A stretch of DNA of 64,000 nt. Origin: Acutalibacteraceae bacterium (GTDB lineage: Bacteria; Bacillota; Clostridia; Oscillospirales; Acutalibacteraceae). This document shows, piece after piece, positions 2,351-16,439 of the stretch. A model generated the notes under the pieces. The model saw nothing but the letters and a program-made list of their open reading frames with translations, ran no database searches and was not told where the DNA came from. A program made the translations under genes and the position numbers. Within the stretch, counting starts at the first letter, position 1, and the number at the start of each line of letters is the position of its first letter. Where the stretch lies: the NCBI GenBank assembly GCA_036307305.1, contig JAXJXV010000021.1, positions 68,276-132,275 on the forward strand. Direction: 5' to 3'.

Positions 2351-2429
2351 AAATGTGCGATTTTGAAATTCGTATAGTCGCAGTTTGTTTCTCCTTTTGC
2401 TAAACTTTGGGCATAAGGAGGTGCTGACT

Positions 2430-2729
2430 ATGACACGGTTTATAGAAGAATTTTATTACGGAAATATTGATCCGCAGGCACGTAGTACGAAGCAAAACAA
2501 GACGGTTCAAAAGCAAATGGAAGTGTTGATGAAGACGGAAGATCTGCTCACGAACACTCTGACTGATGAGCCGAAGAAATGGTTTCTTGATTTCTCGAAT
2601 GCGTGGAGTGTGGTCAATGGTGAATCCAATCTTGACAGTTTTATTATGGGATTTCGCCTCGGTGCTAACTTTGCTTGCGATGCTTTTATCTCAACCGAAA
2701 CACCATTCGAGGACTTGTTAAAGAAATAA
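2430..2729 (+). CDS. small conserved hypothetical protein of mobile elements
   Basis: An aaggagg RBS lies 8 nt before the ATG at 2430. The product starts MTRFIEEFYYGNIDPQ. The function is not recognised. Confidence 0.6.
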   Translation: MTRFIEEFYYGNIDPQARSTKQNKTVQKQMEVLMKTEDLLTNTLTDEPKKWFLDFSNAWSVVNGESNLDSFIMGFRLGANFACDAFISTETPFEDLLKK

Positions 2730-2962
2730 AATTAATTAAAAAAGCACAGCAGATAGAATAATAACTCTGTCCGCTGTGCTTGTTTTTATGTTCAAGAGAA
2801 AACATCTGTATTATCTTAGCGAGCAGACCGTTTGTACTCCTGTTGTCGCAAAACAGTACTCGTTAGGGACACCCTAATACCCGTCTGCAATTTTCAAAAT
2901 CGCACATTCGTAAAAACAAACCTCTTTTGGTACAATCAAAGCATCAAAGGAGGTTTTGCTAT

Positions 2963-3334
2963 ATGAAAACATTATTCGAACAACTCGGCGGCACCTACAC
3001 AATGCAAGGCGATTACTGCTTGCCGAATCTTCTTCCACCCAACGAAGAAGAACGTCCCATCGGCGTTTGGGGACAGCGCCGTTTGCACTACCTAAAGCAC
3101 CACCGCAAAGTCCTGTACTATAACCTGCTCACAGCCGGCAAGCTCCACTCCCACCTCTTAGACATCGAAGAACAAGCCCAAGAATTATTCAATCGCCTCA
3201 CCACCGGTCTCGCACAAAAGGAAGGCATCACCGAACAACTCAAAGCAACCGATCAAATGCAGTGGGTGCAGAAGATGAGCAACATCCGTGAGCGTGTAAC
3301 TGAAACTGTCTATTCAGATGTGGTGTACGTATGA
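2963..3334 (+). CDS. TnpV-like transposon-encoded protein (Tn4451-type accessory protein)
   Basis: aaaggagg RBS before the ATG at 2963. MKTLFEQLGGTYTMQGDYCLPNL...GVWGQRRLHYLKHHRK matches my recollection of the TnpV family. Confidence 0.55.
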   Translation: MKTLFEQLGGTYTMQGDYCLPNLLPPNEEERPIGVWGQRRLHYLKHHRKVLYYNLLTAGKLHSHLLDIEEQAQELFNRLTTGLAQKEGITEQLKATDQMQWVQKMSNIRERVTETVYSDVVYV

Positions 3335-3398: not shown

Positions 3399-4331
3399 TT
3401 ATATAATACTAAGTTTGGTAACGGAATTTGCTTCCAAAACATCTTTTGTTTCGTTATCTTGAAAAATTTTAAAACAAAGGTAACGAATTAGTAAAGACGT
3501 TTCATCTGCGGTGCTAATCTTGAAATCGCCCGAATCATCAAGCGGTATATGTAACATCTCGGCAACTTTCTTTCGACTACGTTTATCCTTGATTCTATTT
3601 ACTCTCTCTGTTTTCAGTGTAATAAAAGTGCGAGAAGACTTGTACTGTGTAGCAAGAGATTTAAATGTTTCAACATTGCTAAAGGCATTTGTATTTACAA
3701 TTTCATCGATGGCTTCATTTTTTACTTTTGCCATTGTTTTTTCAAGATTAAACAATGTTTCAAAAGTGTGATTAAATGTATACATTGCGCCGTTATACAC
3801 AATTAGGTCGACGGTTAAATACAAACGACAAACATCGTCAGTTATTAAATCGAGTTCGTCATTTGCTGTTGTAGAGAATACTACTGATTTTTTGTTACTG
3901 AGTTTAGTTATAGGGTTAGCCAGCTTTATAAACGTTACGGGATTATCTTCTTCGGTAGAAGGTTGTCCATACAGTATATAACCGTTAATTCTTCCTTCAA
4001 TCTTTTGGTCAGAAGAAGCAGCTACCGCACTATTAAACAATGACCACTGCTCGGATACTAACTCATCCGTTATTAGTAACTTATCGCAAGATACTTTGCT
4101 ATTCTCTCCATCATAACTTTGCACATTGCTTATGGGTTCGATTTGAAAGTTTTCCGTTGCATTTAATAAATTAGATGCATATTGTGAAAGATAAGTTCCA
4201 TTCTTGAAACGAACTTTACTCACTTTATAAGGTTGTTTGCCACGGTTATCTATCTTGAAGAAGTATAAAGACCAACTATAACTATGTTCTTTTAGTGAAG
4301 AACACATGCTTTTTAGTATTTCTTTGCTCAT
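3399..4331 (-). CDS. KwaB-like protein (candidate Kiwa component, DUF4868-like)
   Basis: 310-aa soluble protein whose start overlaps the stop of the upstream 4-TM gene by 4 nt. Size and gene pairing fit Kiwa. The domain assignment is from memory, not a search. Confidence 0.45.
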   Translation of the reverse strand: MSKEILKSMCSSLKEHSYSWSLYFFKIDNRGKQPYKVSKVRFKNGTYLSQYASNLLNATENFQIEPISNVQSYDGENSKVSCDKLLITDELVSEQWSLFNSAVAASSDQKIEGRINGYILYGQPSTEEDNPVTFIKLANPITKLSNKKSVVFSTTANDELDLITDDVCRLYLTVDLIVYNGAMYTFNHTFETLFNLEKTMAKVKNEAIDEIVNTNAFSNVETFKSLATQYKSSRTFITLKTERVNRIKDKRSRKKVAEMLHIPLDDSGDFKISTADETSLLIRYLCFKIFQDNETKDVLEANSVTKLSII

Positions 4332-4966
4332 TCCTTTTCACCTTTGCTTTCCGTAATGTATATATAATTATCGAAATCCCAATACGATACATTATTTTGT
4401 TCTTCTTGAGTGAGGTCATCTTTGCTTATGACAAGACTATCATGATAGGTATGTTTCTCTTCAAGGATAGTACATTCAAGGTCACAGATAAACATTCGAT
4501 ATCCTTTGAATTCCAAGAAGATATTTGTATAAATATTGTTATTTCTTATACACAGAAAAGCCAAAACTGCAAAATAAATCAAAAATAAAGATAGATTTTG
4601 AAGATCGCCAAAATCAAAAGCAATCATAGGCAAAATATACGCGAGCAAAAACTCTGAAGATAGCTTGTTTGCTTTTGTTGCTTTAAGGACGGTTGCTTTA
4701 GGATTATCATCAGAGGAGTTTAATTTTTTGAGGAAAGCATTTATTCCGCCTATACTGCAAAGAACTACAATAACTATTGCAATAATACTAATTACCTGAA
4801 TACAACCTTCGCTTAATGAAGTAACTATATTTTCTAAAGTTTTAACTTTTTCATCCCATTTATCCATTACGATTAAAACAAAATCCCATGTGTCTATAAC
4901 AATAATAGAAATCCATAGGGGGATAAAAGATGTAACAAACATATCCCATTTAAATTTTCTCCACAT
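4328..4966 (-). CDS. KwaA-like 4-TM membrane protein (candidate Kiwa component)
   Basis: 212 aa with RBS agaggtga. Four hydrophobic helices (FVTSFIPLWISIIVI, IQVISIIAIVIVVLCSIGGINAF, FLLAYILPMIAFDF, LSLFLIYFAVLAFLCI) are followed by a soluble tail of about 70 aa. Confidence 0.45.
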   Translation of the reverse strand: MWRKFKWDMFVTSFIPLWISIIVIDTWDFVLIVMDKWDEKVKTLENIVTSLSEGCIQVISIIAIVIVVLCSIGGINAFLKKLNSSDDNPKATVLKATKANKLSSEFLLAYILPMIAFDFGDLQNLSLFLIYFAVLAFLCIRNNNIYTNIFLEFKGYRMFICDLECTILEEKHTYHDSLVISKDDLTQEEQNNVSYWDFDNYIYITESKGEKE

Positions 4967-5130
4967 AAAACGCTCACCTCTTTTTTATGATTTAACAGAA
5001 ACTTTAATTATAGAAAGTAACGACCGCATATTGCCGTTAGTTTAACAACACAGCAGAACACTTTTTCTCTATTAAATAACTACACTATTTGTTGGATTAT
5101 AGCTTTGATTATATATGTTTTTCATGGTTT

Positions 5131-6390
5131 CTATTGCTTTTTTATTTCTCTTATTATCCATACTGCACCGAATATAACAAAGATGCCCATGACAATCCAA
5201 AAGGAAATATTGAACGGGAGTTTAAACTCGGTCTGTAATACTTGTAGAGTTTGAGCACTGCCAAACAATGCAAGTATGTATAGAAGGATATTTAGCAAGC
5301 GACCATTGTTACTGATTTTCCTATCTTGATAAATGTTTAGCGTCTTTAATTTGAAGTCAATTGCTTGTTTATATCTTGTAAATGAGTAGGTGTTTTTTAG
5401 ATTATCAATCATATTTAAAGTGATAATTGGAACATGACGCGGGTACAATTGACTTTCTGCATAAATTTGATGATCGACTATTTCATCTAGTTTATGGTGT
5501 ATTTCATAGTCTATTATCATTTTTAATAATATAAAAATCTTAAAACCTTCAAGAATCATACAATCATTAAGAATATGATGCTTTTCCATTCCGTTACTGA
5601 TATCAGTAACCACACCTAAATACTCTGTGGAATAAAAATTGAATGCGTCTGTTGCCGAAATGTTTTTCACATTAAAATCTTCAACTTTTCCTCCTAACAC
5701 GCATTGAAAATATTCCGTAATGTTCTCTAACTTATTAGATAAAACGAGAATGTTATGAACATAACTATAGTTTCCAACTTCCCATTTATTGTTTGATGAT
5801 TTTGTCAAAAAACCATATACATTTTTAAAAATGATATCAGATATCTTACGATGGTCTTCTGAAAACTCCGCTTCATTAAAATACTTTATTTTATCAATAG
5901 GTTTGATTCCGAAATTATTAGATCTTCCATAAATAGCTTTTGACTCTAATGGAATACCAGTCTTAAAATCGATTAATTCAAAATTTACAATTAATGAACC
6001 GCTCATTATAAATGCTACAGGATCAACTTGATATACCACCTCTCCAAACATAACAAGAAAACGTTCCAAATTAAAGCAAGTATTAATTTGGATAAGCGTA
6101 GGATCTAAGAGCGCATTTGCTGAATGTTGGAGATAAAGAGTGGTCATCATCTCGTCAGCAAACTTTGCATAAGTCTTGTTATATTCTTCAAAATTCTTTT
6201 CAAAGTGAAATGCTGTAACTTGATTAAGAGAGTTGTATTCAGCCGTGTAATGACATTTAGCATAGGGAGTAATATAGGTGTTGTTGTGGGAAAAACCTGC
6301 TATGTGGAACTGAGTCCAAAAATCTTTCTTTGCTTTTTTTCCGAATCGAAAATGATGTCGTTCTATTTTATGAATGTTATAAGCGGTCAT
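5131..6390 (-). CDS. hypothetical 419-aa protein with a soluble N-terminal region and a C-terminal two-helix membrane hairpin
   Basis: Long ORF in the AT-rich block. The C-terminus reads LLNILLYILALFGSAQTLQVL ... FNISFWIVMGIFVIFGAVWII REIKKQ. There is no recognisable catalytic motif. Its own SD is weak, but an upstream micro-ORF overlaps its start codon in an ATGA. Confidence 0.7.
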   Translation of the reverse strand: MTAYNIHKIERHHFRFGKKAKKDFWTQFHIAGFSHNNTYITPYAKCHYTAEYNSLNQVTAFHFEKNFEEYNKTYAKFADEMMTTLYLQHSANALLDPTLIQINTCFNLERFLVMFGEVVYQVDPVAFIMSGSLIVNFELIDFKTGIPLESKAIYGRSNNFGIKPIDKIKYFNEAEFSEDHRKISDIIFKNVYGFLTKSSNNKWEVGNYSYVHNILVLSNKLENITEYFQCVLGGKVEDFNVKNISATDAFNFYSTEYLGVVTDISNGMEKHHILNDCMILEGFKIFILLKMIIDYEIHHKLDEIVDHQIYAESQLYPRHVPIITLNMIDNLKNTYSFTRYKQAIDFKLKTLNIYQDRKISNNGRLLNILLYILALFGSAQTLQVLQTEFKLPFNISFWIVMGIFVIFGAVWIIREIKKQ

Positions 6391-6461
6391 AAATACAACG
6401 GTTTCTTTTCTGTATTTGTCTTCGGTTGAACATCGTGCTTTATTTTCTTATATTTAGCCAT
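6387..6461 (-). CDS. 24-codon lysine-rich micro-ORF (MAKYKKIKHDVQPKTNTEKKPLYL), translationally coupled to the 419-aa gene
   Basis: It is below the ORF-track length cutoff. A strong SD (ggggaggtg) lies about 8 nt upstream of the ATG at 6461. Its TGA stop (6389..6387) overlaps the ATG of the downstream gene (6390..6388). Confidence 0.4.
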   Translation of the reverse strand: MAKYKKIKHDVQPKTNTEKKPLYL

Positions 6462-6515
6462 TCTCCGCACCTCCCCAATTATTTGAATACAACAATTATC
6501 TTTCTCAAAGCCCGT

Positions 6516-7631
6516 TTAAAATACAAATTGACATGTTCCTCCGCCGAGCCAGTTTACCTTCTTTGATATGCCGCCTTTTTCTCCGGAAACAACTTGTTCC
6601 ATGCGTTTGATAACATAGTCGCAAGTTTTATATTCACTTTCAATGCCGATATAATTACGATTGAGTTTATGAGCTGCAGAAACAGTCGTGCCAGAACCCA
6701 AGAACGCATCCATAACGAGCTCATTTTCATTTGTAGCAATCTCGATTATTTGACCGATCAATGTTTCTGGTTTGGGCGTATCAAATATATCTTTGTCATA
6801 AATTTTTAATGCTTTCAAATGCGTTTTGGCATCTTTATTTGTGCCAACAAATGACGACAACCATAAAGTTTCTGGTACAACACCACGTGGTCTATCCTTT
6901 AAAAACTTTTTGGCACGGGGGACTCCGTTACCATCATTACCAAACCAAATGTTGCCTTGAGCAATTTCCTCAGTCATTTTTTCCTTATTATAGATCCAGC
7001 ATCTACCTTTTGGAGGAGTATGAATTTTTCCGTTCGGGGCAATTATCTCGTAAAACTGGCTTTCAACTGCATGCCCATCTTGGACGTTAACGGATACAGA
7101 TTGCCATGGCCCTCTAGGATCGTTATCTGGATTATGGTAGCGAGTCAACACATCTTCGGTGATCGGTAACAAATTTCGTTTTTTCTTGAATAATTCAGGA
7201 TTTGGAGAATAAACCAAAATGTACTCATGATTATTTGAGAATGCTTTTCTGTTTTCACGGGTGTTTCTTTGCTGCCATATTAACGTTGTTACAAAGGATT
7301 TTCTACCGAAAATAGTGTCACACAACACTTTTAAGTAGTGCATTTCACCATCGTCTATAGATATCCACAAACTCCCGTCATCCTTCAAAAAATCCTTAAG
7401 TTCTCGCAAAACTTGTTCCATCTGCTTCAACCAATTGTCATGGGATTGTACATCGGAATAATATGTATATTTCTCCCCGTTGTTATATGGTGGATCGATA
7501 TAGATACAGCTTACCTGTTTATCGTAAATTGCGTGAAGGCTCTTTAATACATCTATATTATCCCCGTTAAAAACAACATGAGGGTTCTTTGAGTATTCTC
7601 TTTTCCATGTTGAGAAATCTAAATTAATCAT
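6516..7631 (-). CDS. site-specific DNA methyltransferase, beta-class N6A/N4C (N6_N4_Mtase type, Mod-like)
   Basis: Motif IV IYIDPPYN lies N-terminal to motif I AFLGSGTTVSAAHKLNRNYIGIE. Confidence 0.85.
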   Translation of the reverse strand: MINLDFSTWKREYSKNPHVVFNGDNIDVLKSLHAIYDKQVSCIYIDPPYNNGEKYTYYSDVQSHDNWLKQMEQVLRELKDFLKDDGSLWISIDDGEMHYLKVLCDTIFGRKSFVTTLIWQQRNTRENRKAFSNNHEYILVYSPNPELFKKKRNLLPITEDVLTRYHNPDNDPRGPWQSVSVNVQDGHAVESQFYEIIAPNGKIHTPPKGRCWIYNKEKMTEEIAQGNIWFGNDGNGVPRAKKFLKDRPRGVVPETLWLSSFVGTNKDAKTHLKALKIYDKDIFDTPKPETLIGQIIEIATNENELVMDAFLGSGTTVSAAHKLNRNYIGIESEYKTCDYVIKRMEQVVSGEKGGISKKVNWLGGGTCQFVF

Positions 7632-7643
7632 AAAACTCTCCTA

Positions 7644-8981
7644 TTATTTACAAACAATAAGCAATTCTGCTTCATCATTTGATTCAAAATTTTTGTCTAC
7701 AGAATTTAGTTTACTGTGAGTGAATTTTCCCGGAGAAACAACTTTTACATCCTCGAAATACTGATTTGCTTTTTCAATCAATTGATCGATTGTCTGCAAC
7801 CGAGGAGTAACTGCTTTTGAAGCATCAAAAGGAGAATATGATAAGACCAGAGGAACTCCCAGTTCTCTGACTTTTTGAAACAATTTATCAAATGCTTCTT
7901 CGGCCTCACTTTTTATGCAAAAAGGAGATTGATGTCTACCTGTTCGATAAATAGCACGGCTTATTCCGCCTTTGCCATTAGGGAAGGTTGTTGTAACTTT
8001 TGGGTTATCACGCAGACAAATAGTTTCAAGAACATGATAGTATCGACTATAATGGTAGCGTGTATATGGTGGATCGGCATATACTGCTGCTACCGGTATG
8101 CCTTTCAATTTATCTATAGCTGTAATGTAATCATCACAAATCATAGTATGTTTATGTTGTGTTTGGCCTATAGATAAGTAATAATTCAACCACCTCTCAT
8201 AAGTGGTATACACATCTTCATTTCTGTCTTTGAGTATTTTTTTTAGCAGTGATTTTTTTAATTCACCTTTAGAGTTTCGAACTTTAAGAGGTTGGGCGAA
8301 TTGTTTTCCTACCGTGTTTACTAAATCGCTTGCAGTGCTCAAAAGTGCAGCCAAGGATTTTGTTTTTAAAACACCATTTTGCCCAAATACCCAGTGTGCG
8401 ATACAGTCCATATCTATGGCCTGTTTGTATGAGTAATATAAGCCGCCATAGTATCTGCATATCATACTGTCTGCATGTGCAATGTTTTTGTTGGCATAAA
8501 GTTTATCAAAAGAAACTTTAATAGCATGTTTTAGTGCTCTAGATAAGCCAACTGATTCCTCGTGTTCAAAAATGTATAAAGAACCACACTCTATTATTTC
8601 GTATAGATGTTGATAACAGCCCTTTTCTGCAGACTCGATGCATTCTTTTTCGTGAGCAATCAATGACGTAAAAATATTATTGATTTCTGCTGTTTGGGGG
8701 TGACTTTTTATATTGTCTATTATCTCATTTGCTGGAACAGGCGAATTAATGAAGCTTGTAGAAGCTTCACATAAAACTTTTGAATACTCTTGAATATCGA
8801 CTGATATCACATCATAGGTATGAAGTAGATATTTAGATACTGTTCCGGAACCAGAAAAAAGATCACAAATCGCACCAGGGGTGTCTACGACCTCTAATAA
8901 GGCTTTTTCAATAGAATCCAGCATTCGCAGTTTGCTTCCTAAATAGTGAATAGGACGCACTTCTTTAGTTTCTTTGTTCAT
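7644..8981 (-). CDS. DNA adenine methyltransferase, D12/Dam-like class
   Basis: IHYLGSKLRML (Dam YxGxK signature), DLFSGSGTV (motif I) and VYADPPYTRYHYSRYYH (motif IV). Confidence 0.8.
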   Translation of the reverse strand: MNKETKEVRPIHYLGSKLRMLDSIEKALLEVVDTPGAICDLFSGSGTVSKYLLHTYDVISVDIQEYSKVLCEASTSFINSPVPANEIIDNIKSHPQTAEINNIFTSLIAHEKECIESAEKGCYQHLYEIIECGSLYIFEHEESVGLSRALKHAIKVSFDKLYANKNIAHADSMICRYYGGLYYSYKQAIDMDCIAHWVFGQNGVLKTKSLAALLSTASDLVNTVGKQFAQPLKVRNSKGELKKSLLKKILKDRNEDVYTTYERWLNYYLSIGQTQHKHTMICDDYITAIDKLKGIPVAAVYADPPYTRYHYSRYYHVLETICLRDNPKVTTTFPNGKGGISRAIYRTGRHQSPFCIKSEAEEAFDKLFQKVRELGVPLVLSYSPFDASKAVTPRLQTIDQLIEKANQYFEDVKVVSPGKFTHSKLNSVDKNFESNDEAELLIVCK

Positions 8982-8985
8982 GTGC

Positions 8986-10233
8986 TCATTCCTTATCTAA
9001 TCTTTGCCATATTGATAATGAGGGTATATTGTCTAAAACTTCTTTTGCCGTAAAAGTTAGTCGGCGCATTTTAGTTGTATGTTTTTCTTTTTTAGAAATA
9101 AAGGACAGGGCTTGATCGTATACATCTTGTTCCGGCATTAGCAATGTATAGATAAAATCACGTTGTGATACCCTTGCAAATACCGCAATTGGACGATTCC
9201 CATTTGAAGGATATGCCAATCCGTTTGCAGCTTCTAATTCAAAACGATAATTTTGGCTTGAAACAGAAACACTGGGGCGTATCTCTGTCTCACACATACT
9301 TCCATCAGAATTTACGCATTTTAGAAGAATTCTGTAGGCGCCATTCTCTCCACAGGTTGCTCCAAAATAGTTTTCAAAAGTATTTTTGTCAAAATTAGCT
9401 TGTTTCCAGCGATTGCCGCTTCTTGGAATTTCAGCGATCAATACATCACTGTCGGATGTTATTGTCCAGTATGAAGCATCAATATCAATTTCTTCGTCTG
9501 TAATAGGAAGCGTAATGATATCTACTTTCTCTTCTTTTTTAGGAGTCGTATCTGCTTCTACGACTTTAACCGACGGTTGTTTTATATCTTTTGGCTGATT
9601 CTTGTAAATGTTTGCTAATTCATCAGTAACTTTTTGTTTAGTAGAATTTTTCTTTACAGATGCTTTTGCGACACTTACAGCTCTTGTTTGTTCTGTGTTC
9701 TGCTTCGCTCTTGCCATGACAATCGGATCATCTATGTCAAACAAAAATGGCAAACTGTGTGTATACCAAGAATTCCATTCTTCAGTGACTCTATCCATAT
9801 TTTCAGCATCGTACGGAATTACACTGTATGCTTCTCTATTATGTCGAAGTCCTTTTTGCGTTAAATTTCCAGATCCTAACACTAACACTCCGCCTTCTTG
9901 TTTTTCAAACCAAGAAAACTTTGGATGGAAAGTGGATCCTTTATTGCTATGTATATAAGCTTTTACTATCAAGTGGTCATTATATTTTTTCTTCAATTCT
10001 ATCAGGGTATTTACTGCGTGTTCGTTGGTAATATCATCAGTTCCGACAATTAAGGTAAAAACACCCTTCTGAAGGAAAGATTTGAAGTTTTCGTCTTCAA
10101 AAAGAAGGTTGATACCATCTTTTGAAGCAAACGCGTATGCACCGCCGCCACGTTTGCTTCCAACGCATTCGCTAAGTAAAGTTTCGTGTAAATACATTGA
10201 GGTTTTATATGAAGGATCTTGGATATAAAGCAT
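8986..10233 (-). CDS. PLD-superfamily (single HKD) nuclease with a Lys-rich linker and an extra C-terminal domain; BfiI/NgoFVII-like restriction endonuclease candidate
   Basis: One HKD-type motif, FHPKFSWFEKQEGGVLVLGSGNLT (HxK...GSxN). The linker is KKNSTKQKV...TTPKKEEKV. A C-terminal domain of about 170 aa follows. The gene sits 4 nt upstream of two methyltransferase genes. Confidence 0.65.
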   Translation of the reverse strand: MLYIQDPSYKTSMYLHETLLSECVGSKRGGGAYAFASKDGINLLFEDENFKSFLQKGVFTLIVGTDDITNEHAVNTLIELKKKYNDHLIVKAYIHSNKGSTFHPKFSWFEKQEGGVLVLGSGNLTQKGLRHNREAYSVIPYDAENMDRVTEEWNSWYTHSLPFLFDIDDPIVMARAKQNTEQTRAVSVAKASVKKNSTKQKVTDELANIYKNQPKDIKQPSVKVVEADTTPKKEEKVDIITLPITDEEIDIDASYWTITSDSDVLIAEIPRSGNRWKQANFDKNTFENYFGATCGENGAYRILLKCVNSDGSMCETEIRPSVSVSSQNYRFELEAANGLAYPSNGNRPIAVFARVSQRDFIYTLLMPEQDVYDQALSFISKKEKHTTKMRRLTFTAKEVLDNIPSLSIWQRLDKE

Positions 10234-10251
10234 AAAGAAATCAACTCCTCT

Positions 10252-11148
10252 TTAGTTCTCGTTATACGCACGATCGATAAGCGGTTTAGCTTTTTCAAAG
10301 TCTGCAGCATTTTGTAAATGAAGTTCTACAGCACCACAGCCCCAGTGACCAATATTAGTCACGTCTCGTGAAAATCCCGGCTCAAATGTTACTGAAGTAA
10401 CATCAATAGGCAGGTTCAAAATCAGCTTTTTCTTTAGTGCAACTACTGTTACAATGTTACGGATTTTCTTGAAAGCGGCGTAAAGCTTCAAGTGAGTTTC
10501 GGAAACATCATCACCAAGACTGAGGATATAATTAGTTAGATCTTGATATAAAGTTTTTACTGATTCATCAGCCGTCTTTAATTGTTCGTCAAATGTTTTA
10601 TCGGTGGATTTTGTCTTAGTGGTTTGAGCGTCATTGTCGGGAATTGCTGTTGCAACATTTTCATTGATGTGTTCAAACATCAACAGATCGCTGCCAAATT
10701 TCTTATATCTAATCAGGCTGACATTTCTATTCATTTGCTTAATAGCAGATTCATCGTACTTTGTGAAGTCGCCAGCAATACAAACAACACGAGGCATTGT
10801 CCAGTCAATCTTGTCTGCTTCTTTGAGTCCGAGTTTTTCAATTACTAAAACCTTAAAACTATCCTTATGATCTAAAAGCCAGTTAAGATAAAACAAACCT
10901 TGATTGATTACATTCTCTTTCATAGAACGTTTATATTCGAAGATGACCGGACAATGGTTTTCATCAATACCGATGCTATCCATTCGACCACCATCTGTTG
11001 TCTTGTATTCAGAAGCAAGAAAAGTTACACCGAAAAAGATTTCCATATTATTTTCAATAACGGTCTGTAACTCTTTTTCAAGTGTTACGTTGCCGCTTTG
11101 GTATTCTTTTACCTTGCCGTTTATGTTAAAAAGTTTTATATCAGCCAT
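10252..11148 (-). CDS. NucS/DUF91-like PD-(D/E)xK endonuclease domain fused to a DUF5655-like C-terminal domain
   Basis: GRMDSIGIDENHCPVIFEYKRSMKENVINQGLFYLNWL fits the D...ExK...Q..Y pattern of NucS-like nucleases. The C-terminal LYAAFKKIRNIV...GHWGCGAVE resembles DUF5655, from memory. Confidence 0.6.
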   Translation of the reverse strand: MADIKLFNINGKVKEYQSGNVTLEKELQTVIENNMEIFFGVTFLASEYKTTDGGRMDSIGIDENHCPVIFEYKRSMKENVINQGLFYLNWLLDHKDSFKVLVIEKLGLKEADKIDWTMPRVVCIAGDFTKYDESAIKQMNRNVSLIRYKKFGSDLLMFEHINENVATAIPDNDAQTTKTKSTDKTFDEQLKTADESVKTLYQDLTNYILSLGDDVSETHLKLYAAFKKIRNIVTVVALKKKLILNLPIDVTSVTFEPGFSRDVTNIGHWGCGAVELHLQNAADFEKAKPLIDRAYNEN

Positions 11149-11452
11149 TTTCTTTGTCCTCCAACTCTAACTTTGCAAGTTTTGCTTTTAGGAAATCTAT
11201 TTGAAACTGCATATTCGTAATAATAAGATTATCAGCAACTTGATAAAGGCTAACACTTCCGCTTACTGCTTGCTTTGCTTTAGTTGCTAATGCTAACTCG
11301 GCATCTGTAATTTGAAGCGATGTTATCTTTTCAATCGCATTGTTACGATCAAGAAAACCGCTCGTTTGAAATTGATAAACAATTTTTTCTCGCTCGGCTA
11401 TATCCTTTGCAAGGGATAATTTATCGTATTCTTTTTTTATTGGGTTACTCAT
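11141..11452 (-). CDS. small (103 aa) predicted alpha-helical/coiled-coil protein, first gene of the operon
   Basis: RBS is ggagcaaatATG. Its stop overlaps the downstream start by 8 nt. No motif recognised. Confidence 0.6.
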   Translation of the reverse strand: MSNPIKKEYDKLSLAKDIAEREKIVYQFQTSGFLDRNNAIEKITSLQITDAELALATKAKQAVSGSVSLYQVADNLIITNMQFQIDFLKAKLAKLELEDKENG

Positions 11453-11562: not shown

Positions 11563-12162
11563 TTAACTATGTAGCAGTATCTCCATAATGTCCATCACTT
11601 TATTGTAAACCCTCAGCTTCTTTGCGTAATCGGAAAGGGCGATGAGGTTTTTCTGCGTATCGTTTGCGTATGCATTTACCGCTTTACTGAACATTTCGTT
11701 ATCTACCTTGCCACGATGCTTGAACATATCGCAAATGGTGCGCTCACGGTCGTAAATAGCAAATGTAACGCCATTTTCGGTAATCGTGGTTTTACCGAGC
11801 TCATAGATATCGTCTTTAACGTAATAGACCTTTATCGGCACGGAGGTATTAAGCCTGCGTGATGCACTTCTCGGCACGGTAACAGACCAAACCCTCGGCA
11901 TAAAATCGCTGTAGCCATAACGGAACAGAGCCGATTCCATACTGATGATCGCTTCGGGAATGGTAGAAGCGATTACCTGCTCATCGGAGAGGATCAGCTC
12001 GTCTGCAAGTTGATAATAGCCTTGACGGACACGCTGAAGAAAGCCGTCTGAACACAGCTTATATATCTTCTCTTTTGGCACGCCGGCGGATGTGAGAGCA
12101 GACAGCTTTGCAATTCCGCCGTTGGCACTGATTATGTTTTTTATAATATCTTTATGTTCCAA
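11563..12162 (-). CDS. AbiEi-like (type IV toxin-antitoxin antitoxin / wHTH regulator), no cognate AbiEii present
   Basis: N-terminal wHTH is IISANGGIAKLSALTSAGVPKEKIYKLCSDGFLQRVRQGYYQL. The C-terminal domain has SMESALFRYGY...IYDRERTICDMF. The likely start is the TTG at 12162, 7 nt after GGAGG, rather than the longer ORF-track start. Confidence 0.65.
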   Translation of the reverse strand: MEHKDIIKNIISANGGIAKLSALTSAGVPKEKIYKLCSDGFLQRVRQGYYQLADELILSDEQVIASTIPEAIISMESALFRYGYSDFMPRVWSVTVPRSASRRLNTSVPIKVYYVKDDIYELGKTTITENGVTFAIYDRERTICDMFKHRGKVDNEMFSKAVNAYANDTQKNLIALSDYAKKLRVYNKVMDIMEILLHS

Positions 12163-12377
12163 TGTCCTACCTCCAATAAACGATAACACATTGTGTTTAA
12201 TGTTTTCTTTTGTATTATAGCACAAGTGTGTGAATATAGCAATAAAAAATCGAAACAAAAATCAATTTGTGTTATCATTTTTTGAATTCAATTGCTTCTT
12301 TGGCGCTTATCGAAAGATAGGCGTCTTTTTTTATGCCTATTTTTTTAAACACCCTTGTGGATCGGGGTATCCCTGTG

Positions 12378-13555: not shown

Positions 13556-14470
13556 ATGGCAAGAAAATCAGATTTTACTCTGCCGCCGATCCCCATTGAT
13601 GCCATCTTTTCAACACAGGCGGAAAGAGACGATGCGCTCTTAGAGCGAGTACACAATATTCCTCTTGAGCAATTGCACCCATTCAGGGATCATCCATTCA
13701 AAATTCAGTCAGGAGAGGAAATGGATAAAATGATAGAGAGTATCCGCAAGGTTGGGGCGATAACACCTGCACTTGCACGACCGCTTGAGGATGGCGGGTT
13801 TGAGCTGATATCGGGACACCGCAGACTTGCTGCGTGTCAAGTATTGGGACTTAAAACAATGCCCGTAATTGTTCGTGAAATGACAGATGATGAGGCGGTG
13901 ATCGCAATGGTAGATGCAAATTTGCAAAGAGAAACCATACTCCCCAGCGAAAAGGCGTTTGCTTATCGGATGAAGTTGGAAGCAATAAAACACCAAGGTA
14001 GGAGTATTTCCCGACAACTTGTCGGAAAGGAAAGCGCTGACACACTTTCAAATGATGAAAGCGGCAGACAAGTCCAAAGATATATCCGCCTAACATACCT
14101 CATCCCCGAATTACTCACCAAGGTAGACGAAGGCGAAATTGCTTTCAGTCCGGCGGTAGAAATCTCATTCTTGACAGAGGATGAGCAAAGAATCCTGCTT
14201 GATGCAATCGAACTAAACGACTGCACGCCTTCCCACGCACAAAGCATACGGCTGAAAAAGCTATCGCAGGACTGTGTACTGACCAAAGACCAAATATACG
14301 AACTGATGGCGGAGGAAAAGCCGAACCAACAGGAGCATTTGCGGTTTCGCAGAGAGGATTTCAACGGATATTTCCCTAAGTCCTACACCGAACAGCAGAT
14401 AAAGAAAGATATCCTGAAAGGTTTAGAGCTTTTGCACCGCCACCGACAGCGAAACCGTGATGCGAGATAA
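13556..14470 (+). CDS. ParB/Srx N-terminal domain protein (ParB-like nuclease domain)
   Basis: LHPFRDHPF...FELISGHRRLAACQVLGL...MPVIVRE is the classic ParB-N box. Confidence 0.8.
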   Translation: MARKSDFTLPPIPIDAIFSTQAERDDALLERVHNIPLEQLHPFRDHPFKIQSGEEMDKMIESIRKVGAITPALARPLEDGGFELISGHRRLAACQVLGLKTMPVIVREMTDDEAVIAMVDANLQRETILPSEKAFAYRMKLEAIKHQGRSISRQLVGKESADTLSNDESGRQVQRYIRLTYLIPELLTKVDEGEIAFSPAVEISFLTEDEQRILLDAIELNDCTPSHAQSIRLKKLSQDCVLTKDQIYELMAEEKPNQQEHLRFRREDFNGYFPKSYTEQQIKKDILKGLELLHRHRQRNRDAR

Positions 14471-14499: not shown

Positions 14500-14688
14500 A
14501 TGATTACAATTATTAAGGATAAAAATCCTAACCATATTTTCGCCGCCTTAAAGCTTTGCGAACAGCTTTATCACGACGGCAAAATTCCGTTATATATGTT
14601 TCGAAATATGGTAAATCAGCACGCTGACGTGGTGGATGCCTCGAAATTTAATTTCACCATTCAGCAGGAAGGAGAAAAAGCCGGATGA
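14500..14688 (+). CDS. small hypothetical protein, ATGA-coupled to the recombinase gene
   Basis: aaaggagg RBS. Its stop overlaps the ATG at 14685. Confidence 0.55.
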
Positions 14689-16439
14689 TGTATCGATACA
14701 ATGAATTTGACGAACGAAGGGTGGTGATTTATGCCCGTGTTTCCACCGAGCACGAAGCACAGATATCCGCACTCAGCAATCAGCTGGAATGGTATCAGCA
14801 ATACCTCGACCACCACCCCGAATGGAACTTAATTGACCGCTATATTGACGAGGGTATCACGGGAACCTCGGCGGAAAAACGACCGGGATTTACCCAGATG
14901 ATTGCAGATGCCAAGGCACACAAGTTTGACCTAATCATTACACGTGAGGTCTCCCGATTTGCACGTAATACCGAGGAAACCCTGCACTTTACAAAGATGC
15001 TTCGCCGCATCGGTGTTGAAGTGTTCTTTATTAACGATAATATCAAAACCTTTGACGGCGACGGCGAGCTTCGCCTTACCATAATGGCGAGCCTTGCACA
15101 GGACGAAAGCCGCAAGACCTCTATCCGAGTGAAAAGCGGTCAACAGATCTCTATGGAAAAAGGCGTGTTCTACGGCAACGGCAATATTCTCGGCTATGAC
15201 CGAGTGTAGAAAATCGTGGAGGGCAACAAAAAGCAGGTGGATTTCAATATCAATCCCGTGCAAGCCGAAACGGTGCGTAAGATATTTGATATGTACCTTG
15301 AGGGACACGGCCTAATGGCAATAAAAAATGAAATGGAGCGAACGGGGCGTAGGACTGCTACGGGACTACCGAATTGGCATTGCACGGGAATCTCCCAAAC
15401 GCTCAAGAACTCCTTTTACTGCGGTATCATTACCTACCACAAGGAATACACTCCCGACTTTTTGGTGCAGAAAAAGGTAAAAAACTACGGTGAAATGGCA
15501 TTAACACAAGTGCAAGGCAGACACGAGCCGATTATAACCGTTGAAGAATACGAAAGGGTGCAAAAAATCATGAAAAGCAAAACGGGAAAACTCAAGAATC
15601 CAACCGCAGGAAGAAAGCTGACGGGCGTAACACCGCCAAAGACCGTATGGGGCAGACTGATGATCTGCTCCTGCGGTAGGCGGTTTAACCGCCGCAAATG
15701 GAGAACCAACGCTAACGGCGAAAAGTTCTTCGGCTATCAATGCTACGGCACAACGCAAACAGGCACTATCAAAAGTCGCCTAAAACGTGGACTCCCAATT
15801 GACGGTATCTGTCAGTCACCGATGATTGCCGAGTGGAAGCTGCAGATGATGGCAAACTATATCTTCCGGCACTTTCTAACCAATAAGCAAAAGGTATTGG
15901 AAATCGCAAACTCCTTACTTGAGGAGCATATCGGCGATACCGAGGTGCAAGTGCAGGATAATTCAAAACTCATTGAGCAGAAACAACGTGAGCTTGACAG
16001 AGCCAACACCAAGCGCAGAAATCTTGTTGATTTGCTTAGCAATTGCGATATCACCCGTGAGGACTATCAAGAGGCACGTGCCGAGGTGGATAAGCAGATA
16101 GATAAACTCAAGGCGGAGATCGAAGAACTGACACCCGTAGTCGAGGAAACCGAGGAGGAAGAAATTGACTACGAAAGCAAGATAACCGTTCTCCGATATG
16201 CCTTGGAGCAATACACCAATTTTGATACCGACGGCGATATCCCCGAAAGCGTTATCGAAGCCTTTGTAGAAAAAATCGAGGTTTCAAAGGACTGCTTTAA
16301 GTGGTATCTTCGTGGTGATTTCGGCGGCGACTCTCCCATTCCTATGAATGTGGAGGGTAACCGCAAGAAAGGGGCGACAATTTCGCCCCAATACATAATT
16401 CCCCCTGCAAACTTTGGCGACTCAGGCAGCAATCGCTGA
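14685..16439 (+). pseudogene. large serine recombinase interrupted by one in-frame TAG (15207..15209)
   Basis: The N-terminal resolvase domain ([13 protein letters not shown], catalytic Ser) ends at TAG. The recombinase, zinc-ribbon and coiled-coil part continues in the same frame from 15210 (ORF 15216..16439). Confidence 0.8.

Follow-up and report, generated by a model that had tools for sequence, protein, structure and literature searches.

Does the lysine (Lys)-rich 24-codon open reading frame (ORF) that overlaps the start of a 419-amino-acid (aa) ORF in a metagenome-assembled genome (MAG) of an Acutalibacteraceae bacterium encode a peptide of its own, or are the two ORFs pieces of one gene? 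The DNA studied is a 64,000-nucleotide (nt) window of this MAG, and all coordinates below are window positions. The original prediction, made from the window's letters, took the short ORF for a leader peptide coupled to a separate membrane effector. Comparison with homologs shows instead that the peptide is the severed N-terminus of the same protein. There is thus one gene, not two, namely a frameshifted copy of a candidate membrane-acting defense effector, a reading to which we assign a probability of approx. 0.9. The whole gene occupies 5131..6461 on the minus strand and encodes approx. 443 aa once one base is restored.

Evidence for a single frameshifted gene

On the minus strand, a Shine-Dalgarno (SD) sequence, GGGGAGG (6476..6470), is located 8 nt before the ATG at 6461, which is the true start codon of the whole gene. 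The 24-codon "micro-ORF" (6461..6387, minus) extends from this ATG to a TGA at 6389..6387 and encodes MAKYKKIKHDVQPKTNTEKKPLYL. There are 236 ORFs of at least 20 codons overlapping the first 16 kb of the window, and the 24-codon ORF stands out among the window's small ORFs by its proper ribosome-binding site. The 419-aa ORF (6390..5131, minus) begins with an ATG at 6390..6388 that overlaps the TGA of the micro-ORF as ATGA, and no SD-like motif was found in the 20 nt before 6390. In these respects the sequence is as first described, including the poor SD of the large ORF. Upstream of its ATG, the frame of the 419-aa ORF contains no stop as far as 6447 and encodes ..KETVVF ahead of the Met.

A search of 5.8 billion proteins yielded 110 homologs at 34-93% identity, nearly all of which are 440-445 aa long, that is, 24 + 419. 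In all 94 aligned full-length homologs, a Lys-rich tail leads in frame into the conserved D[TA]V[VI]FM[TA]AY; the tail comprises 5-30 aa (mode 19), 28% of which are Lys. The N-terminus of homolog P0001 reads MAKHKIIKQDVQSKINTENETVVFMTAYNIHK and that of P0003 reads MAKHKKIKHDVQPEKSIEKDTVVFMAAY; the tail of the latter, MAKHKKIKHDVQPEKSIEK, is fused in frame and nearly identical to the micro-ORF peptide. In particular, codons 1-19 of the micro-ORF (MAKYKKIKHDVQPKTNTEK) match the native Lys-rich N-terminal tail of the homologs, and its last five codons (KPLYL) and the TGA arise where the conserved ETVVFM codons are read out of frame. The 419-aa ORF of the window starts at the Met that corresponds to residue 25 of the homologs (Met25), an internal Met conserved in 92 of 94.

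The frameshift site is located at 6405..6409 on the minus strand, where an A-run (6409..6406) is followed by G 6405, and one base is missing between 6406 and 6405. In a DNA alignment with three homologous loci, a one-column gap occurs in the window only (GAAAA-GAA vs. GAAAACGAA or GAAAAAGAT), and the GGAGG core of the SD is invariant between the window and loci L001, L002, and L003. When one base is inserted between 6406 and 6405, the result is a 443-aa ORF that is 95.5% identical over its full length to P0112 (444 aa). The ratio of nonsynonymous to synonymous substitution rates (dN/dS) of the 419-codon body against L001 is 0.12, which indicates purifying selection over most of the divergence and, as a consequence, a break that would be either a recent mutation or an error in the MAG consensus or assembly. 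An exact-sequence lookup found no other contig on record carrying the window's 419-aa product.

The frameshift also accounts for the layout that suggested translational coupling. The conserved codons GTA TTT ATG ACC (V-F-M-T), read one base out of frame, give ..TTA TGA; the ATGA overlap is thus a by-product of the frameshift and not a regulatory device. Judged by the alignments, the micro-ORF is the gene's own 5' end and its SD is the gene's real SD, and the 419-aa ORF is without an SD of its own because its start region is internal coding sequence. The deposited record for this MAG, located on a 145-kb contig, holds a 419-aa protein (MEE0946864.1; U0M42_08590), which is a truncated gene call that annotates only the 419-aa remainder. 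Nothing was found that contradicts the frameshift reading. The case resembles frameshifted or N-terminally truncated MAG genes (homopolymer indels; pseudogene alleles annotated from an internal Met), in that a one-base indel falls in an A-rich run and the pipeline called the longest reading frame that opens at the following ATG, so that the 5' piece went unannotated as a micro-ORF; no difference from such genes was found.

The idea of a generally error-ridden assembly gained no support, as the three overlapping same-strand ORF pairs checked elsewhere in the window are all unrelated gene pairs and not frameshifts. At 6321-6335 on the minus strand (codons 19-23 of the 419-aa ORF), the window encodes KKAKKDFW, whereas the close homologs P0001 and P0112 have KKAKKKDFW. 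Here the window has lost one Lys codon without a change of frame, within another A-rich run (GGAAAAAAAGCAAAGAAAGAT), which suggests that the A-rich Lys stretches of the gene are indel-prone in general.

Split and intact tails at other loci

Twenty-eight distinct DNA loci of the family were compared for a start codon upstream of Met25. Only the window and L010, a locus in a MAG named Clostridia bacterium (JAZNMD010000012.1), lack an in-frame start there; the other 26 are intact. The original prediction had named conservation of the micro-ORF upstream of homologous genes as its own test, and the micro-ORF turned out not to be conserved as a separate ORF. L010 displays the same micro-ORF and ATGA layout at 9518-9592 (MAKKKNIVKKFQKLIRKYRIPLFL, followed by the stop codon). 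Its one-base deletion is found at about codon 10, in the A-run TTAAAAAGTT at about 9542-9546, and thus elsewhere in the tail than that of the window, which argues for an independent event and no shared design. Two further candidates for frameshift alleles, P0005 (420 aa) and P0070 (417 aa), were ruled out: both have intact in-frame starts with good SDs (GTG in P0005 and TTG in P0070), and these two database entries, which start at Met25, are gene-call truncations.

The tail-coding DNA is approx. 47% A and contains A-runs of 4-8 nt, with the break sites at runs of 4-5; A-runs of 6-8 nt are also present in the gene body. A "frameshift-tolerant design", in which an alternative frame would be open through the tail to the ATGA, was rejected, as most intact loci have stops in that frame a short distance before the TGA, and these sequences provided no evidence of a designed switch. 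An ATGA-coupled Lys-rich micro-ORF before a gene without an SD can be that gene's own 5' end after a one-base indel, and a simple check is to compare homolog length with ORF length, both of which come from one homology search.

Expected products of the window allele

Translation from 6461 would run five codons past the break and end at the TGA at 6389..6387, and termination-reinitiation at Met25 would yield at best a small amount of the 419-aa product. The 419-aa ORF is the only product possible without frameshifting; it is devoid of the tail and of D20-F24 of strand beta1, of which D20 and F24 are conserved in at least 90% of the 94 aligned homologs. As a start at Met25 removes part of a structured, conserved strand of the model, the 419-aa product is probably impaired. 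With the body in the -1 frame and the break on A-AAG, it may be speculated that a trace of full-length protein is made via -1 slippage. We infer that the window allele is an inactivated or strongly attenuated copy, or otherwise null.

Architecture of the protein family

The AlphaFold2 (AF2) model of the full-length protein is confident, with a predicted local distance difference test (pLDDT) score of 87.7 and a predicted template modeling (pTM) score of 0.82. Residues 1-19 are disordered (pLDDT 36-59) and are followed by strand beta1 (residues 21-30, pLDDT 96). The latter opens a cytoplasmic alpha/beta domain, a putative sensor (5590..6405, minus; P0001 residues 20-292), which reaches pLDDT 91.9 and pTM 0.89 when modeled alone. 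The domain is succeeded by a helical stalk (5308..5583, minus), composed of P0001 helices 295-321, 326-338, and 347-357 and the start of helix 360-414. This last helix, 55 residues long, continues into the first transmembrane helix (TM1), and the second (TM2) comprises residues 418-442 of the model.

TM1 (5227..5307, minus; NGRLLNILLYILALFGSAQTLQVLQTE) is a putative pore-lining helix that is nearly invariant and laced with polar residues. In particular, column frequencies reach 0.99 for N387, N392, L394, L395, and Y396 and 1.00 for L398, and Q405, T406, Q408, and E413 are also conserved. A short loop connects TM1 to TM2 (5152..5208, minus), which is strongly hydrophobic, with Kyte-Doolittle 19-residue windows reaching 2.9, and variable in sequence, with F429, G433, and W436 conserved. 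A basic cytoplasmic tail, REIKKQ, follows, and by the positive-inside rule this basic C-terminus points to an N-in/C-in topology.

Searches with the family returned little beyond the family itself. In an exhaustive hidden Markov model (HMM) search of 1.84 billion representatives, only the family was found (128 representatives at 50% identity, many of them fragments), with no bridge to a known family. At E <= 0.01, neither Pfam nor PADLOC-DB v2.0 has a family for the 419-aa protein, while its neighbors match PADLOC families (methyltransferases (MTases), PDC-S18, KwaA/B, AbiEi). A relaxed Pfam scan of all 94 members (E up to 5) gave scattered sub-threshold matches only (DUF7135, DUF2207_C) and no CorA, and the sole match of the family profile to PDB sequences was a TPR protein (E 0.032), again with no CorA. 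By structure, the alpha/beta domain alone has no credible neighbor in the PDB (Foldseek; best E 0.065, probability 0.12), and a Foldseek search of viral structures (BFVD) gave nothing (best E 0.12). Kinship of the N-terminal domain with CYTH-like or Med18/20 proteins was dismissed at a Foldseek probability of <= 0.12, and a CYTH relationship is not proposed.

Comparison with CorA

When the full model was compared with the PDB, the first 14 places were all taken by CorA (E 0.013-0.17, probability 0.28-0.80, TM-score 0.15-0.26). As in CorA of Thermotoga maritima (PDB 2iub, 3jcf, 8tmn), the N-terminal alpha/beta region of the model would be cytoplasmic and a long stalk helix continues into TM1, with TM2 after a short outer loop and a basic C-terminal tail at the end; in both families TM1 is far more conserved than TM2. 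The family differs from CorA in the lack of the GMN motif, found in none of the 94 aligned members, whose corresponding loop reads Q-T-E-F-G-L-P-F, in the lack of a match to PF01544, in its larger N-terminal domain (about 270 aa), and in being rare and mobile rather than housekeeping. As modeled, the protein is built like a CorA-type channel and is not a demonstrable member of the CorA family, and the fold of its cytoplasmic domain is without a match.

The architectural part of the original prediction fared accordingly. Its soluble region without recognizable motif was borne out by Pfam, PADLOC, NCBIfam, and PHROGs and by the Foldseek search of the N-terminal domain. Of its two hydrophobic C-terminal helices with a short basic tail, the hairpin and the tail stand, whereas the first helix is laced with polar residues and the second alone is strongly hydrophobic. 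The likeness to CorA that it saw in this topology holds weakly, in the ranking of Foldseek matches, and not in their scores, in the GMN motif, or in Pfam.

A CorA-family membrane protein also serves as an effector of type III CRISPR systems, where it is reportedly activated by SAM-AMP (PMC10600005). It resembles the present family as a CorA-type membrane protein acting as an immune effector, a comparison of architecture only, and it sets a precedent for a cytoplasmic sensor domain joined to a CorA-like pore in defense. It differs in that there is no detectable sequence relationship, no cas10, NrN, or SAM-AMP lyase genes occur near any family locus examined, and the partners here, when present, are restriction-modification (RM) systems. 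CorA is the closest structural relative of the family and the type III CRISPR CorA effector its closest functional precedent. In the literature searched as full text, no description of an RM-linked CorA-like protein was found, and the only CorA-type immune effector was the type III CRISPR one.

Distribution and genomic neighborhood

The family occurs in 8 of 185,579 species-representative genomes, all of them Clostridia MAGs (Ruminococcus, Faecalimonas, Faecousia, Acutalibacteraceae, Oscillospiraceae), and a further member is found in a record named Lachnospiraceae bacterium LCP25S3_G4. The family is restricted to gut Clostridia (Oscillospirales, Lachnospiraceae). A scan of IMG/VR found no relative and hence no evidence that the gene is phage-borne.

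In the window, the gene follows a same-strand operon (6516..11148, minus) that comprises PDC-S18/DUF5655 (10252-11148), a 415-aa PLD-family nuclease with a weak PLDc_2/NgoFVII match (8986-10233), a D12 MTase (7644-8981), and an N6_N4 MTase (6516-7631), the last operon gene, with 54 nt between its end and the true start of the family gene. L001 carries these five genes in the same order, the first four at 5290-9925, and the family gene there again comes 54 nt after the N6_N4 MTase. The conserved four-gene block looks RM-like, with a PLD nuclease and two methylases joined to the PADLOC candidate PDC-S18. Downstream lies a Kiwa pair (3399..4966, minus) consisting of KwaA (4328-4966) and KwaB (3399-4331), so that the setting between an R-M-like operon and a Kiwa-like pair is as originally reported. 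The Kiwa pair is a separate system that neither L001 nor any other locus has.

About 23 loci extend far enough upstream to be judged. In 8 of them the gene immediately preceding on the same strand is an RM gene, at a distance of 2-54 nt; in 11 (these 8 and 3 more), an RM gene is among the three preceding genes. The adjoining RM types are three: N6_N4 MTases, MmeI type IIL enzymes, and N6_Mtase with an S subunit. In L004 (2441-5601) and L009 (8153-11335), the gene starts 2-3 nt after an N6_N4 MTase of 606-614 aa, which in L009 is situated beside a ResIII-domain helicase, and in L012 (785-2938) it starts 3 nt after a Schlafen/AlbA_2 gene. These junctions of 2-3 nt in three unrelated genomes point to co-transcription with different partners. 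An MmeI-type IIL enzyme is found upstream at 17-43 nt in L005, L013, and L015, or with one gene between in L031; N6_Mtase with an S subunit is upstream in L025 and, with an AAA_15/AAA_21 ATPase between, in L032. L002 has a DndB-like gene upstream and a Methylase_S nearby. The upstream gene is AbiEii in L007, a DUF4379 protein in L010, and DUF6273/HNH in L023, and the remaining loci have unannotated genes.

The family gene is usually the last of its same-strand run, and integrases, resolvases, relaxases, TnpV, and ParB-like genes are frequent neighbors. These observations show an accessory, horizontally moving gene that is kept in defense islands. Recurrent placement beside known defense genes in unrelated genomes, the criterion for such islands, was observed, as raw counts. 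Moreover, the short gaps that recur between the gene and RM genes of several classes suggest co-transcription, and a functional link is possible.

Alternative explanations

If the micro-ORF were a genuine leader peptide, a separate 24-codon ORF would deliver ribosomes via the ATGA to a 419-aa effector that has no SD. The good SD and ATG before the micro-ORF, the ATGA overlap, the missing SD of the 419-aa ORF, and the second locus with the same layout, L010, would all fit. This explanation is nevertheless scarcely credible, because the peptide is fused in frame in every full-length homolog aligned and at 26 of 28 loci, and the difference between the window and its relatives comes down to exactly one missing base. 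Moreover, the large ORF's frame retains the codons for the conserved ETVVF ahead of its ATG, the L010 split is a different deletion (codon ~10), and most intact loci have stops in the alternative frame a few codons ahead of the TGA. Alternatively, the start might be phase-variable or recoded, with the A-rich Lys tail serving as an on/off switch or a programmed -1 frameshift site and the Met25 ATGA as a restart for a reduced-function product. It fits this idea that two independent one-base deletions both hit the A-rich 72-nt tail region, about 5% of the gene, and spare the 419-codon body. In addition, both alleles have the body in the -1 frame and break at Lys codons, A-AAG for the window and AAA-AAG for L010, at which -1 slippage of tRNA-Lys is known (dnaX, IS-type slippery sites), and Met25 is conserved. 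However, phase-variable contingency loci carry a long simple-sequence tract in the 5' part of the coding sequence, usually a homopolymer of at least 8-9 nt, whose length varies between strains and within them. The tail contains no long homopolymer (at most 8 A, and 4-5 at the breaks), the body has equal A-runs, and only 2 of 28 loci are shifted. The clustering of breaks in the tail is also subject to ascertainment bias, as frameshifts in the body give fragments that are not counted in full-length searches, and the conservation of Met25 would be explained without a restart role by its place in a buried, confidently modeled beta-strand. A switch of this kind is thus quite improbable.

A different objection concerns the protein rather than its start: the gene might encode a housekeeping divalent-cation channel of the CorA family with a mis-called start and no relation to defense. 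CorA Mg2+ channels are the sole structural neighbors of the family, and the N-in arrangement, the two C-terminal TM helices with a basic tail, and the conserved TM1 beside a variable TM2 agree with such a channel. Against it stand the absence of GMN from all members, the lack of a Pfam CorA match in any of them and of a sequence match to CorA in the PDB, and an N-terminal domain unlike that of CorA. Furthermore, a housekeeping gene is hard to reconcile with presence in 8 of 185,579 species genomes, always in variable, mobile-element, or defense contexts, and we consider this explanation highly improbable. A single frameshifted gene for a candidate membrane-acting defense effector is therefore the reading on which the following proposal is based.

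Proposed function

The original suggestion of an undescribed defense or abortive-infection (Abi) gene remains plausible from the genomic context. We infer that the most likely function of the intact protein is that of a membrane-permeabilizing anti-phage effector of the abortive-infection type, given its predicted build, that of a CorA-type oligomeric channel, and the way it closes RM operons carried on mobile elements. The protein would oligomerize into a CorA-like pore, its cytoplasmic domain would sense an infection cue and gate the pore, and pore opening would collapse the membrane potential and abort the infection, as a second line behind the neighboring RM system.

Several points weigh against this proposal. 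The 419-aa protein matches nothing in Pfam, PADLOC, NCBIfam, or PHROGs that would speak for a defense function. The likeness to CorA is below significance (E >= 0.013, TM-score <= 0.26), and the CorA matches vanish when the N-terminal domain is searched alone with Foldseek, which places the resemblance in the stalk and TM hairpin. RM genes are missing from the vicinity of half of the loci, presence in defense islands is guilt by association, and the MmeI-linked loci may share one ancestral linkage, so that the 8 of about 23 loci would not be 8 independent events.

In a more far-reaching version, which we regard as unlikely, the gene would be a new single-gene anti-phage effector, with a CorA-like pore and a sensor of unseen fold, transcribed together with at least three unrelated types of RM system as their last gene. 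It would act as their abortive-infection back-up, firing, for example, when restriction is overcome or inhibited, and the A-rich Lys tail would be a mutational off-switch for a costly suicide gene, which would explain the two independent tail frameshifts. An RM-linked abortive-infection back-up is known in PrrC, an anticodon nuclease of the cytoplasm that is bound to one particular type Ic enzyme, EcoprrI. PrrC is likewise a second-line suicide effector inside or at the end of an RM operon; in contrast, the present protein is membrane-embedded and has three unrelated RM partner types, and half of its loci are without any. If the family were a defense effector, it would add a CorA-type pore outside type III CRISPR signaling and, if true, would be a possible instance of RM-coupled abortive infection from a phylum that has been little studied. 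What remains of value is a compact, well-folding, unannotated family in which a cytoplasmic domain without a match is joined to a membrane module resembling CorA.

Other features of the island

Promoter and terminator scans gave counts at shuffle expectation, with no terminator between the N6_N4 MTase and the gene; a weak terminator-like hairpin follows the gene at 5039..5018. An AbiEi-like regulator (11563-12258, minus; PADLOC E 8.6e-62) has no recognizable AbiEii toxin after it. The ORF that follows it (11141-11452, minus) encodes 103 aa that match no family, and it shares 8 nt with the start of the DUF5655 gene. The island also encodes a second predicted two-TM protein of 240 aa (1593-2315, plus), which matches CyanoTRADDas_TM (Pfam E 5e-16) and has no PADLOC match.

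DUF6809 and TnpV genes (2385-3334, plus) are situated just beyond the Kiwa pair, and a ParB-like gene is found at 13556-14470. Together with a large serine recombinase, they suggest that the first ~16 kb of the window are a transposon- or integrative and conjugative element (ICE)-like element with stacked defense systems. The recombinase gene (14685-16439, plus) lies at the island edge, next to an alpha-L-fucosidase gene, and is interrupted by an in-frame TAG at 15207-15209, between ..GYDRV and KIVEG..; the Resolvase domain is in 14685-15209 and the Recombinase domain in 15216-16439. The split recombinase suggests a decaying, immobilized mobile element, which fits real inactivating mutations.

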